Positions 33,456 to 44,645 of a stretch of 45,449 bases of DNA are shown here, one piece after another. Below the pieces are notes generated by a model. It saw only the letters and a list, made by a program, of their open reading frames with translations. It was not told the origin of the DNA and did no database searches. The translations under genes and the position numbers were made by a program. The DNA comes from Rhodospirillales bacterium (GTDB lineage Bacteria; Pseudomonadota; Alphaproteobacteria; UBA828), in the NCBI GenBank assembly GCA_028818565.1, contig JAPPNV010000029.1, positions 1-45,449 of the forward strand, in the 5' to 3' direction. Position 1 is the stretch's first letter. Every line of letters begins with the position of its first letter.

Positions 33456-34058
33456 CTACCAGCCGCCGGTTTCGAGCCAGCGGTCGATCATCTCCAGCCG
33501 GTCGTGCCCCCAGAACATCTCGTCGCCGACGAAGACGGTGGGCGAGCCGAAGACGCCGCGATCGAGTGCGGCATCGTTCTCGGCGCGCAAGCGGTCCTTG
33601 ATAGCCTGGTCCTGCACTGCCGCCACCAGCGCATCGCCGTCCACGCCCAGCGCCTTCGCCGCCGCGACCACCGTCTCCGGCTGGCTCAGGTCGCGGTTCT
33701 CGACGAAGTAGCCGCGATAGAGCGTCTGGGCGAAATCGCGGGCCGTGGCGGCGTCGCTATCCGCCAGCCAGTAGTAAGCGCGGCAGGCGGCGATGCTGTT
33801 GACCGGGAAGTTGTCGGGCACGTTGAAGGTAATGCCGTGCAGGCGCGCCGAGCGCAGCATGTCGTGCTGCGAGTACGGCCCCTTCATGGGCTGGTTGACC
33901 AGGGGGCTGCCGCCGATCTTCTGGAACACGGCGCCCAGCAGCATCGGCCGCCACGTTGCGCTACGCCCGTGCTTCGCCGCGATCCCGTCGATCCGCTCGG
34001 ACGCGAGGTAGCCGTAGGGCGACGAAAAGTCGAAATAGAAGTCGAGACTCTCGCTCAT
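33456..34058 (-). CDS. 2-hydroxychromene-2-carboxylate isomerase / GST-kappa (DsbA-like)
   Basis: DFYFDFSSPYGY and RGVFGSPTVFVGDEMFWGHDR. Confidence 0.9.
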   Translation of the reverse strand: MSESLDFYFDFSSPYGYLASERIDGIAAKHGRSATWRPMLLGAVFQKIGGSPLVNQPMKGPYSQHDMLRSARLHGITFNVPDNFPVNSIAACRAYYWLADSDAATARDFAQTLYRGYFVENRDLSQPETVVAAAKALGVDGDALVAAVQDQAIKDRLRAENDAALDRGVFGSPTVFVGDEMFWGHDRLEMIDRWLETGGW

Positions 34059-39888: not shown

Positions 39889-41777
39889 GGCGCCGGGTCC
39901 TCCTCGGCCACGGCCGTCGCCTCCCCGGCGCGGCTTTCCTCGTCGGCAAGCCGTTGCTCTAGCTCCTCCCTGAGCTCGGCAGTCTCCTGCTGACGCCACC
40001 ACATCTCGGCGTAGTGGCCGTCCCGCACCAGCAGCTCGGCGTGGCGCCCGCGCTCGACGATGCGCCCGCCGTCCAGCACCAGGATCTGGTCGGCGTCGAT
40101 GACCGTGGAAAGGCGGTGCGCGATCATGAGCGTCGAGCGGTCGCGGCTGACCTCCCGCAGACTCGCCTGAATCTCCTTCTCCGTCTGCGAATCGAGCGCC
40201 GATGTGGCCTCGTCGAACAAGAGAATACGGGGATTCTTGAGGATCGTGCGCGCAATCGCCACCCGCTGCTTCTCGCCGCCCGAGAGCTTGAGGCCGCGCT
40301 CGCCGACCATGCTCTCGTAGCCGTCGGGGAGTGCTGAGATGAAGTCGTGGATATGGGCGAGCCGCGCCGCCTCCTCCACCTCGTCCGCGCTCGCGTCGGG
40401 CCGGCCGTAGGCGATGTTGTAGTAGATCGTGTCGTTGAAGAGCACCGTGTCCTGCGGAACGATGCCGATGGCTGCGCGCAGGCTCTCCTGGCTCACGTCG
40501 CGCACGTCCTGGCCGTCGATTCTGACGCTGCCGGCCTCGATGTCGTAGAAGCGGAAGAGGATGCGCGAGATGGTCGACTTGCCGGCCCCGCTCGCGCCCA
40601 CGATGGCCGTCGTGGTGCCGGGCGGCACGCGGAAGGTGATGCCATCGAGGATGCCGCGCCGCTCCTCGTAGCGGAAGCGCACGTCCTCGAACTCGATGGC
40701 GCCGGCGGTGACTTCGAGCGGCGGCGCGTCCGGCGCGTCCTCGATCTCGCGCTCCACCGAGAGGATGCCGAACATCGCTTCCATGTCGGTGAGCGACTGC
40801 TTGATCTCGCGATAGACGAAGCCGAGGAAATTCAAGGGGATATAGAGTTGCAGCAAGTAGGTGTTGACCAGCACGAAGTCGCCGATGGTCATCGTGCCGG
40901 CGGCGACCTCGTAGCCCGCCATGATCGTGATGCCGGTGAGCCCGGTGGCGATGATGATTCCCTGGCCGATGTTGAGCAGCGAGAGGCTGGTCTTGCTCTG
41001 CACCGCCGCCCGTTCGTACTGCCGGCGGGAGATGTCGAAGCGCTGCGCCTCGTGCATCTCGTTGCCGAAATACTTGACCGTCTCGTAGTTGAGCAGGCTG
41101 TCGATCGCCTTGGTGTTGGCCTCGCTGTCCTTCTCGTTCATGCGCCGGCGGTACTTCAGGCGCCACTCGGTGACCGTGAGGGTGAAGGCGATAAAGGAGC
41201 CGATGGTGACGAAGGTGATCGCAGCGTACGTGATGCCGTAGAGGACCCAGAGGATGCCGCAGACCATGGTGACCTCCACCAGGGTCGGCAGGATGTTGAA
41301 CAGCATGAAGGTGAGAACGAACTCGATCCCCTTGACGCCGCGCTCGATGGCGCGGCTCAGGCCCCCGGTGCGCCGCTCGATATGGAAGCGGAGCGAAAGC
41401 TCGTGGAGATGGTTGAAGACCTGCAGGGCGACGGTGCGAATCGCGCGCTCCCCGACCTTGGCGAAGACCGCATCCCTGAGCTCCCCGAAGGCGACCGTGA
41501 GCACCCGGAGCGCGCCGTAGGCGAGCAGGATCGCCACCGGCACGACGATGACCGCCGCCGTCTCGCCCGAGAGGATATCGACCGCATCCTTGTAGAGGAT
41601 CGGCACATAGACGTTCGCCACCTTGGCGCCGATGAGAAGCAGGATCGCCAGCAGCACACGGCCCCGCATCTCCAGCGAGCCGCGCGGCCAGAGATAGGGC
41701 AGCAGCGTGCGAATGGTGTGCAGGTGCGAGCGTTCCCCCGCACCCTGCACGCGGGCCTCGCGATCGAGAGCAACCAT
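39885..41777 (-). CDS. Atm1/HMT1-like ABCB half-transporter
   Basis: LSLRFH..RRTG, DSLLNYETVKYF, PLNFLG.VYREI, GASGAGKS and LSGGEKQR. Confidence 0.92.
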   Translation of the reverse strand: MVALDREARVQGAGERSHLHTIRTLLPYLWPRGSLEMRGRVLLAILLLIGAKVANVYVPILYKDAVDILSGETAAVIVVPVAILLAYGALRVLTVAFGELRDAVFAKVGERAIRTVALQVFNHLHELSLRFHIERRTGGLSRAIERGVKGIEFVLTFMLFNILPTLVEVTMVCGILWVLYGITYAAITFVTIGSFIAFTLTVTEWRLKYRRRMNEKDSEANTKAIDSLLNYETVKYFGNEMHEAQRFDISRRQYERAAVQSKTSLSLLNIGQGIIIATGLTGITIMAGYEVAAGTMTIGDFVLVNTYLLQLYIPLNFLGFVYREIKQSLTDMEAMFGILSVEREIEDAPDAPPLEVTAGAIEFEDVRFRYEERRGILDGITFRVPPGTTTAIVGASGAGKSTISRILFRFYDIEAGSVRIDGQDVRDVSQESLRAAIGIVPQDTVLFNDTIYYNIAYGRPDASADEVEEAARLAHIHDFISALPDGYESMVGERGLKLSGGEKQRVAIARTILKNPRILLFDEATSALDSQTEKEIQASLREVSRDRSTLMIAHRLSTVIDADQILVLDGGRIVERGRHAELLVRDGHYAEMWWRQQETAELREELEQRLADEESRAGEATAVAEEDPAP

Positions 41778-41989
41778 GGGGCAGTAAATCCGATGGCTCG
41801 CCCCGCCGCCGGCGGGGCTCAGAGCGCGTTACGTGCGCTTGTCACATAAGCACGAAGCGGGGGCGGATCAAATGCCGGCGCCCGAACGACCCCGCCGTGA
41901 CACTTGTCAGATCGCGCCTGGCACGACCGTGACGGTGGTGGGAGCAGACGGGAGCGAGGCTCCGCGTTGCGCTGTCCGAATCACGCCTC

Positions 41990-42019
41990 GCGGGAGCGTG
42001 GGGATGACCACGCTCCCGC
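41990..42019 (-). terminator. Strong hairpin downstream of the small peptide gene
   Basis: Perfect 12-bp stem GCGGGAGCGTGG / CCACGCTCCCGC with a 6-nt loop, starting 12 nt after the TGA at 42034-42032. No U-tract. Confidence 0.6.
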
Positions 42020-42031
42020 AGGGCCGGCCGA

Positions 42032-42223
42032 TCAGCACGGGATGCCGGGCAACAGGCAGGCGTGCGCCGGCGCCGATCCGCCGATCATCACGACGGTCGT
42101 GGCGACGACCGCGATCGCCCCGATGAAGGCGAACAAGGCGGCGTGACGCAGCCGGATTTTCCTGTGCGGGCTCCCCACGCGTTGTTCGTTCTTGCGGTTG
42201 GTGGCTTGCTCCTGCGCGTTCAT
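42032..42223 (-). CDS. 63-aa precursor: signal peptide plus C-terminal CLLPGIPC (hypothetical secreted peptide)
   Basis: SD AGGAGGT 4 nt before ATG; n-region HRKIRLRH, h-region AALFAFIGAIAVVATTVVMIGG, c-region SAPAHA; downstream hairpin and AT-rich upstream region. Confidence 0.72.
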   Translation of the reverse strand: MNAQEQATNRKNEQRVGSPHRKIRLRHAALFAFIGAIAVVATTVVMIGGSAPAHACLLPGIPC

Positions 42224-42300
42224 CGTTACCTCCTGGTTGCTTCCGTTTCACCTGTCGGCGTCAGCCGGCACTATGCCGAACCGGAGGTTACGTGGAGGCA

Positions 42301-42360
42301 CAGAGGCATAATATCCAATACTTATTTTGTCTCTGAATTATAAGATATTCATATCTAATT
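42301..42360 (-). promoter_or_regulatory. AT-rich promoter/operator region of the peptide gene
   Basis: 15 of 60 bases are G+C. Minus-strand TATAAT at 42342-42337. Inverted repeats CAGAGgCAtAAT-N11-ATTtTGtCTCTG (42301-42335) and AGATAT-tc-ATATCT (42343-42356). Confidence 0.55.
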
Positions 42361-42461
42361 GGCCGAACTCGGGGGCGATTGAGCAGCCAGAGCGACGGAA
42401 ACCGGGAACTGCCTGCGCCGCTATTGCCCGCAGGAAGCGACGCATCCAACCGAGTGCCAGT

Positions 42462-42488
42462 CAGCCGCCGGGCGCGCCCCGGCGTCTG
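42462..42488 (-). terminator. Hairpin after the mutase stop codon
   Basis: CGCCGGG-cgcgc-CCCGGCG extended by CAG/CTG, 12 nt past the stop at 42501. No U-tract. Confidence 0.35.
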
Positions 42489-42500
42489 TTCCTGCGATCG

Positions 42501-44645
<2,145 letters not shown>

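Follow-up and report, generated by a model that had tools for sequence, protein, structure and literature searches.

Phr precursors are carried across the membrane by a signal peptide, and the active peptide is their short C-terminal end. Excerpts of one report describe PhrF as a pentapeptide and present oligopeptide signals as typical of Gram-positive bacteria, as acyl-homoserine lactones are of Gram-negative bacteria (PMC3601957). In this study, we describe a small gene of comparable layout in the genome of a Rhodospirillales bacterium (assembly GCA_028818565.1). The DNA analysed, hereafter the window, is the whole stretch of 45,449 nucleotides of contig JAPPNV010000029.1. According to the list of open reading frames (ORFs) and their translations, an ORF with ATG start on the minus strand (42032..42223) encodes 63 amino acids, the last eight of which, CLLPGIPC, are the putative mature product. 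A first-pass annotation had proposed that these residues form an exported, disulfide-closed octapeptide.

Precursors of Phr-type pheromones (Phr/CSF of Bacillus, RNPP) are the closest working analogy. In both cases a small precursor would yield a short C-terminal product that needs no dedicated modifying enzyme. The linkage to a receptor gene which defines the Phr systems fails, however, since phr adjoins the rap receptor gene whereas the neighbours of our genes differ at every locus. Phr peptides are linear and polar and need a second cut, while here an A-x-A site directly precedes eight hydrophobic, Cys-flanked residues. Moreover, the host is a diderm alphaproteobacterium, and sequence similarity is lacking.

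Small membrane proteins and modified peptides also invite comparison. Hok-type type I toxins are small membrane peptides encoded by patchily distributed intergenic modules with long leaders. In MgrB, a periplasmic Cys is needed for function. The accessible part of one report describes MgrB as a 47-residue inhibitor of PhoQ (PMC8404706). Among the peptides that are made on ribosomes and modified after translation (RiPPs), excerpts of a further report assign to ChrA-like precursors a C-terminal CPxCGxG motif and signal peptides of signal peptidase I or signal peptidase II type (PMC13056109).

A conserved family with a fixed plan

The window's protein consists of a variable polar N-terminal region of 27 residues which ends in the basic residues R-L-R-H (codons 1-27, 42143..42223), 22 uncharged, hydrophobic residues ending in G-G (codons 28-49, 42077..42142), the hexapeptide S-A-P-A-H-A (codons 50-55, 42059..42076) and the octapeptide CLLPGIPC (codons 56-63, 42035..42058), followed by the stop codon TGA (42032..42034). 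An arrangement of n-, h- and c-region ending in A-x-A, with a tail of eight residues, had been read from this one protein in the first-pass annotation; it turned out to define a whole family. All 95 family members show a variable polar N-terminus, a hydrophobic stretch, a P-A-x-A-like site, exactly eight residues and then the stop. The n-region varies from 14 to 40 residues and the uncharged stretch from 9 to 25. Counted back from the first tail residue, position -1 is Ala in 94 of the 95 proteins, position -3 is Ala in 91 and position -4 is Pro in 90, while all 95 have S, P, T or A at position -6. Position -2 is H (48), N (26), Q (20) or Y (1), and position -5 is free (E in 66, A in 24 and five other residues once each). 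Among the loci read, the sole exception in length is L022 (G004:C3:1568201-1568386), a gene of the CFLGIPCW type in which the final Trp codon is TAG, so that the tail has seven residues (CFLGIPC).

The family was assembled from a profile search of 1.84 billion representative proteins, which gave 9 matches, and a profile word search of a 5.8-billion protein collection, which gave 98 proteins. The resulting set of 99 contains at least 95 distinct intact members of 51-74 amino acids; P0024 and P0072, which are frameshifted, and the chimeric ORFs P0023 and P0093 were left out. Family proteins are annotated as 'hypothetical protein' only. The metagenome-assembled genomes that encode them are labelled Rhodospirillales, Rhodospirillaceae, Alphaproteobacteria or Defluviicoccus sp., and the best DNA match to the stretch among sequencing runs is a sponge metagenome, which may be the window's own source. 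In the ESM Atlas a single cluster was found, with a score of 0.78, below the lead threshold. Within the genus, 9 loci in 7 of 21 genomes match with E values from 2e-21 to 2e-9, and two genomes, G004 and the window's own (G000), carry two copies each. None of 23 genomes from other genera of the same taxonomic family has a match. In a class-wide sample of 401 genomes, matches outside the window's genome were confined to five weak ones (E 2e-5 to 8e-4); these all lie inside longer open frames and were taken to be chance hydrophobic matches.

Homologues that run on past the last Cys had been named in the first-pass annotation as evidence that would speak against its proposal. Apart from the frameshifted P0024 and P0072 and the chimeric P0023 and P0093 such homologues were not seen, and the proposal therefore stands on this point. 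Longer or fused relatives were likewise not found in the protein searches, and a dedicated search for longer forms counts as weak evidence. P0023 (83 amino acids) and P0093 (92 amino acids), encoded on contigs of 587 and 921 nucleotides (nt), carry the family's last ~30 residues behind an unrelated N-terminus; the precomputed Pfam assignment is PF00198 (2-oxoacid dehydrogenase acyltransferase) for P0023 and PF00296 (luciferase-like) for P0093. Such ORFs could stem from insertion of the block into genes, from errors of gene calling or from chimeric assembly.

The tails are of a few discrete types. CLLPGIPC is identical in 58 of the 95 proteins, with the conservative variants CLLPGFPC and CLFPGIPC in three each; other types are CFLGIPCW with its relatives and, in four proteins, CLIF[DE][VY]IC. 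Leaders and tails are exchangeable. A clade of 23 proteins, split off at 100/99 in a tree built from the leaders alone, has unrelated N-termini and hydrophobic stretches and the same tail type as the window, mostly CLLPGIPC and in two cases CLFPGIPC. In the same tree the CLIF tail is found with two kinds of leader. The ratio of non-synonymous to synonymous changes (pN/pS) over the 9 loci is 0.79 in the N-terminus, 0.62 in the hydrophobic stretch and 0.34 in the c-region and tail (alignment codons 50-64). Between the window and L002, five synonymous changes and one non-synonymous change are found in codons 50-63. The fixed plan, the exchangeable leaders and the lowest pN/pS in c-region and tail thus indicate that the A-x-A site and the eight residues behind it are the constrained part, and that the remainder behaves like a vehicle.

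Since the frame is open in 15 of 15 homologous loci, homologues exist in the genus and the changes in the tail are mainly synonymous, the ORF is, as judged from these comparisons, a real conserved gene and not a chance frame. In GC-rich DNA of this kind other frames are also often open, and the ORF might accordingly be incidental to a conserved element that does not code for protein. We consider this extremely improbable: the GC content of the annotated frame is 0.73-0.90 at third codon positions versus ~0.5 at second positions, synonymous changes outnumber non-synonymous ones in the tail, and the protein is kept, with its stop in the same position, even where leader identity has fallen to ~30%. 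An Rfam scan of the region found nothing at gathering level.

Proposed export and cleavage, and the Cys pair

We favour, with moderate confidence, export by the Sec pathway and release of the tail. A Sec-type signal peptide at the N-terminus, with a long polar n-region, a 22-residue h-region and S-A-P-A-H-A as c-region, would direct the 63-residue precursor to the inner membrane. Signal peptidase I would cut behind A-H-A, after Ala55, and free CLLPGIPC on the periplasmic side, where DsbA/DsbB could close the two terminal Cys to a C-x6-C ring. The functional product would be a small hydrophobic octapeptide (GRAVY 1.69, ~813 Da when oxidised) which most probably would act outside the cytoplasm as a ligand, be it signal or effector, with its partner encoded elsewhere.

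Besides the fixed plan, the exchangeable leaders, the selection on c-region and tail and the negative searches for longer or fused relatives described above, further evidence for such a precursor is the alternation at the cleavage-like site, similar sites in the same genome, the presence of the machinery and the predicted structure. Signal peptidase I follows the -3/-1 rule. Both -1 and -3 hold small uncharged residues, a helix breaker lies within -6 to -4, and conserved positions (-1, -3, -4, -6) alternate with free ones (-2, -5) as this rule predicts. As in Sec signals, a basic n-region precedes a hydrophobic h-region; in the window's protein R-K-I-R-L-R-H stands directly before the 22-residue uncharged stretch. 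From the window's genome, the N-termini of 26 of 28 periplasmic binding proteins were recovered, and their sites are of the A-H-A, A-Q-A and A-K-A type. The general export and oxidation machinery on which the proposal relies is encoded in the genome: a signal peptidase I gene adjoins rnc, and four DsbA-family matches and one DsbB were found. One of the DsbA-family matches lies in the window itself at 33480-34046 (-), ~8 kb from the peptide gene (PF01323, E 9e-40), the other three elsewhere; it is a candidate for either a periplasmic oxidase or a cytoplasmic isomerase type. The AlphaFold2 (AF2) model, with a mean pLDDT of 64, shows a helix which covers residues 20-48 and breaks off at G-G; the tail behind it is coil.

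Two other export routes were considered and rejected. The Tat pathway is not a family feature, as R-R precedes the hydrophobic stretch in 52 of the 95 proteins, yet the window's protein has R-L-R-H and some members of the distant clade have R-K or R-H. A double-glycine leader processed by an ABC/C39 exporter was dismissed because the neighbouring ABC transporter has ABC_membrane and ABC_tran domains only and is not a conserved neighbour.

Several observations weigh against release of the octapeptide. At 22-25 residues, the uncharged stretch in the window's protein (the median for the family is 23) surpasses the median of 17 among the 26 signal peptides of the genome, though it lies inside their range of 10-26, and it is long enough that it could span the membrane as an uncleaved anchor. 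The n-region of 27 residues is unusually long. In the alignment of the genus (A1) the hydrophobic stretch is conserved, with V40, T42, V44, I47, G48 and G49 invariant. No RNA run that carries the stretch is among the 22 runs listed. No receptor is known, and none is linked at the loci examined. Finally, the residue at +1 is Gly in 11 of the 95 proteins, all of the sister (CFLGIPCW) type, so that a disulfide is not a family-wide property.

The first of these points leads to the main rival reading, itself somewhat unlikely, in which the product stays in the membrane uncleaved as a small bitopic protein (N-in, C-out) and its tethered, Cys-bearing periplasmic tail of 14 residues modulates a sensor kinase or transporter in the manner of MgrB. 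The basic residues before the hydrophobic stretch of 22-25 residues, a modelled helix that could cross the bilayer and the strong conservation of this stretch within the genus would all suit such a protein, and a tethered periplasmic tail with a Cys has its precedent in MgrB. As far as the part of the MgrB report at hand goes, the two proteins are alike in size class, in the single hydrophobic helix behind basic residues and in the short C-terminal Cys-bearing periplasmic part; they differ in that there is no homology, our family is not known to belong to a kinase regulon, its A-x-A is near-invariant and the span is replaceable across clades. If the tail were not cut, it would be hard to see why Ala should be near-invariant at -1 and -3 while -2 is left free. 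The span is wholly changed in the distant clade (P0096 has E-Q inside it and nine uncharged residues only), P0019 and P0074 show internal deletions while the tail is kept, and pN/pS is higher in the span than in the tail. The small-protein families of Pfam and NCBIfam offer no match either: scanning the window's protein against Pfam up to E 10 gave just a weak BTP match (E 0.063, below cut-off), and against NCBIfam nothing relevant.

Lipidation of the tail is a further alternative, since a Cys at +1 (84/95 proteins) is where a lipoprotein would carry its lipid. The canonical lipobox is [LVI][ASTVI][GAS]C. Lgt would place a diacylglycerol on Cys56, signal peptidase II would cut in front of it, and the product would be a miniature lipoprotein, a lipidated octapeptide held at the membrane. 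The Cys directly follows the small residue Ala in these 84 proteins and in 64 of 64 of the window's type, and LspA is present in the genome. The P-A-[H/N/Q]-A before the Cys misfits the lipobox in that -2 is polar, -4 is Pro and -5 is Glu, and the Gly at +1 with A-x-A retained suits signal peptidase I and not signal peptidase II. We therefore regard a lipoprotein as very improbable, even though short lipidated peptides made by the lipoprotein pathway are known, according to the accessible text of PMC13056109.

Returning to the released octapeptide, the claim that it is a Cys-flanked, disulfide-closed peptide stands for the window's type and does not extend to the whole family. Because both Cys are kept in all 64 proteins of this type, even on otherwise unrelated leaders, a C-x6-C ring is plausible here on sequence grounds. 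In the leader tree, the exchange between Cys and Gly at +1 requires at least three changes (gains or losses) on well-supported branches, with the caveat that P0025, one of the 11 Gly rows, sits on a long branch. One Gly-type protein also lacks the second Cys. With Gly at +1 in the 11 proteins and the second Cys lost in one, it is not the Cys pair that appears as the commonest conserved element, but [LF]-[LF]-(P)-G-I-P-C with the Cys at or next to the C-terminus.

A stand-alone block in changing surroundings

The gene is part of a stand-alone block. Comparison of window positions 41500-42800 with 9 loci by blastn gave matches of 74-86% identity, which are confined to 41979-42390; the flanks are unrelated. 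This block of ~400 nt (41979..42390, minus strand) comprises a promoter-like region, a leader, the ORF and a hairpin, and the unit from promoter to hairpin is shared between loci. The reading of the gene as what looks like a complete transcription unit is thereby upheld, and its elements were found where the first-pass annotation had placed them: ORF, ATG, the Shine-Dalgarno sequence AGGAGGT (42228..42234), the AT-rich region upstream and a perfect hairpin just past the stop. The Shine-Dalgarno sequence lies 4 nt ahead of the ATG, and an AGGAGG-like element occurs at the same place in the loci of the genus. Upstream of the ORF the GC content falls to 0.42-0.46, compared with ~0.7 around; the low of 0.42, within 42290-42360, coincides with the promoter-like region. 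The sole sigma-70-like site of the region is TTCAGA-18-TATTAT (42337..42308; mean in shuffled sequences 0.1), in which the -10-like hexamer TATTAT (42308..42313) pairs with TTCAGA at 42332-42337. Loci of the genus share the TAT core of this hexamer, and the distant clade lacks it. From the promoter-like site, the 5' leader would extend over 42224..42307.

The GC-rich hairpin (41985..42024) begins 8 nt past the stop, with arms at 41985-42001 and 42008-42024. Its core has 13 perfect pairs, it folds with -35.4 kcal/mol (z -3.65), and none of 200 shuffles folds equally well. Comparable hairpins were seen in 6 of 7 loci folded. A terminator scan found none, there being no T-run after the hairpin (hence no U-tract in the transcript), and the structure is probably the 3' end of the transcript or a stabiliser of it. 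No consensus structure was found for the 5' leader across 13 loci. A match of the Rfam family sul1 at 41775-41822 (E 0.29, 21.3 bits against a cut-off of 36.2) was discarded as chance-like.

In the window, the block is flanked upstream by a methylmalonyl-CoA mutase gene and downstream by an ABC exporter gene. The neighbours at other loci are a PLP decarboxylase, an aldo-keto reductase, DUF6064, HTH and Macro proteins, an SDR and a molybdopterin oxidoreductase; elsewhere a glycerol-3-phosphate-dehydrogenase-like gene, an ABC permease and MscS. The segment 41874..42507 is absent at this site in related organisms. In two of four runs compared with the window, contigs join 41873 to 42508 (one contig each in the runs X4 and X5, with 19 other letters between) or 41882 to 42505 (one contig of X4), and in them the end of the methylmalonyl-CoA mutase gene directly meets the region upstream of the ABC transporter gene. 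As relatives' contigs lack it, the segment carrying the peptide gene is an insertion or deletion difference between relatives. A search of the ends of these 634 nt for direct or inverted repeats gave nothing convincing.

The gene also recalls a small mobile intergenic module for a membrane peptide of the type I toxin kind, the translation of which would be controlled by a cis-encoded RNA: the product is small and hydrophobic, and the gene brings its own promoter, ~80-130 nt of leader and a hairpin, is present in two copies in G000 and G004, is patchy in the genus and is missing at this site in relatives. We judge such a toxin highly improbable. The most constrained part is the extracytoplasmic tail together with A-x-A and not the membrane span, which is likewise what sets the family apart from Hok. 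The promoter scan of the region found no antisense promoter-like site on the opposite strand, and no antisense element of the Hok kind was seen. Furthermore, the leader is without consensus structure, and the N-terminus is polar over 27 residues.

The absence of an adjacent receptor or modifying gene, stated for the window in the first-pass annotation, holds throughout: none of the loci examined has a linked gene for a modifying enzyme, a transporter or a receptor, and the neighbours vary from locus to locus. This bears on the possibility that the product is a RiPP-type precursor with a C-terminal Cys motif which an enzyme encoded elsewhere would modify before or after Sec export. Two Cys in a C-terminal motif behind a signal peptide correspond to the layout of ChrA-like precursors as given in excerpts of PMC13056109, and discrete tail types on exchangeable leaders would be in keeping with it. 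Chryseobasins/ChrA, bufferins and DAG-RiPPs are, according to the same excerpts, similar to our family in signal peptide, C-terminal Cys motif and export by a general pathway (PMC13056109). They differ from it, as far as these excerpts go, in being 50-160 amino acids or larger, encoded beside a MNIO enzyme and equipped with CPxCGxG or other motifs, whereas here the mature part would have eight residues, and the tails CLLPGIPC, CFLGIPCW and CLIF[DE][VY]IC are unlike CPxCGxG. No modifying enzyme stands beside any locus examined, and a search for MNIO (PF05114) gave no match in the window's genome, which is 92% complete; MNIO was the one class of RiPP enzymes searched. A RiPP is thus improbable.

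The second family member of the window's genome (G000:C104:19238-19423 (+), corresponding to L021:1539-1727) has the tail CFFGIPCF. The location is constant only for the copy of the CFLGIPCW type, which in 7 loci stands between a gcvT-like gene and a gene whose product we take to be PhoX-like. At L021 a tandem glycine riboswitch (RF00504; 60.8 and 41.3 bits) precedes the gcvT-like gene; it was seen in both loci scanned with Rfam.

A bipartite promoter-like motif, CTTAT-N16-17-GTATTGG, is conserved upstream of the family genes, the distant clade included; in the window it reads CTTAT-N17-GTATTGG (42315..42344, minus strand). Short-motif searches with a reversed motif as control gave 5 matches against 1 in G003, 4 against 1 in G013, 3 against 0 in G019, 1 against 1 in G001 and 0 against 1 in G004, where both family genes carry variant first motif halves. 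The motif precedes two tandem genes with RTX calcium-binding repeats in G013 (PF00353, E 1e-42 and 7e-55), with the same pair in G003, and a Memo-AMMECR1 fusion gene in G019. In three genomes it also precedes an ORF-less unit of ~330 nt that has a hairpin with T-run at its end and no counterpart in Rfam. Within the window's genome, the motif is carried only by the two peptide genes and this ORF-less unit (L048, G000:C84, minus strand, ~2548). In looser form, CTTAT-N16-18-GTATTNG, it was seen at L059:1-30 and 1501-1530 (G013), at L058/L060 (G003) and at L053:1501-1530 and L056 (G019). Since the motif is shared with RTX-repeat genes in relatives, it hints that the peptide genes may be co-regulated with secreted proteins. 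The Ros/MucR family binds AT-rich DNA in Alphaproteobacteria. One Ros/MucR homologue is encoded in the window's genome (G000:C378:18573-18941), and that it targets the AT-rich promoter of the peptide gene is speculation.

Possible meaning of the family

The cargo is invariant on unrelated leaders, tails are few and discrete, the genes are patchily present in a cassette-like manner, and in relatives their promoter motif is shared with genes of secreted RTX-repeat proteins. All this points towards a defined partner molecule more than towards some general effect on the membrane. Like the predicted product, the sponge peptides gombamides, chujamides and microcionamides are, in the parts of the reports available, short, hydrophobic and built of proteinogenic residues only, with one disulfide, and several are Pro-rich (PMC12426817, PMC4052314). 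According to the same parts they have 7-12 residues and other sequences, and pyroglutamate or C-terminal decarboxylation is frequent. Neither the octapeptides nor fragments of them turned up in text searches of the literature in one- and three-letter code; supplements were beyond the reach of these searches. The link to the single-cystine peptides of sponges is a lead only.

A broader, rather doubtful extension of these findings is that sponge-associated Alphaproteobacteria make diffusible, cystine-closed, hydrophobic octapeptides by means of Sec, signal peptidase I and Dsb only, with pherotype-like tails, as signals between cells or as factors directed at the host. Stand-alone mini-genes reaching from promoter to hairpin, the discrete types CLLPGIPC, CFLGIPCW and CLIF[DE][VY]IC on exchangeable leaders and a promoter motif in common with the genes of RTX exoproteins in relatives would agree with such a pherotype system. 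Annotation pipelines call genes of this kind hypothetical proteins only. If the octapeptide is released, it would be among the smallest gene-encoded exported products known in Gram-negative bacteria, made with no dedicated enzyme or transporter. And if the broader reading is true, peptide signalling of the Gram-positive kind would exist in a diderm, and the single-cystine peptide chemotype of sponges would have a bacterial source.

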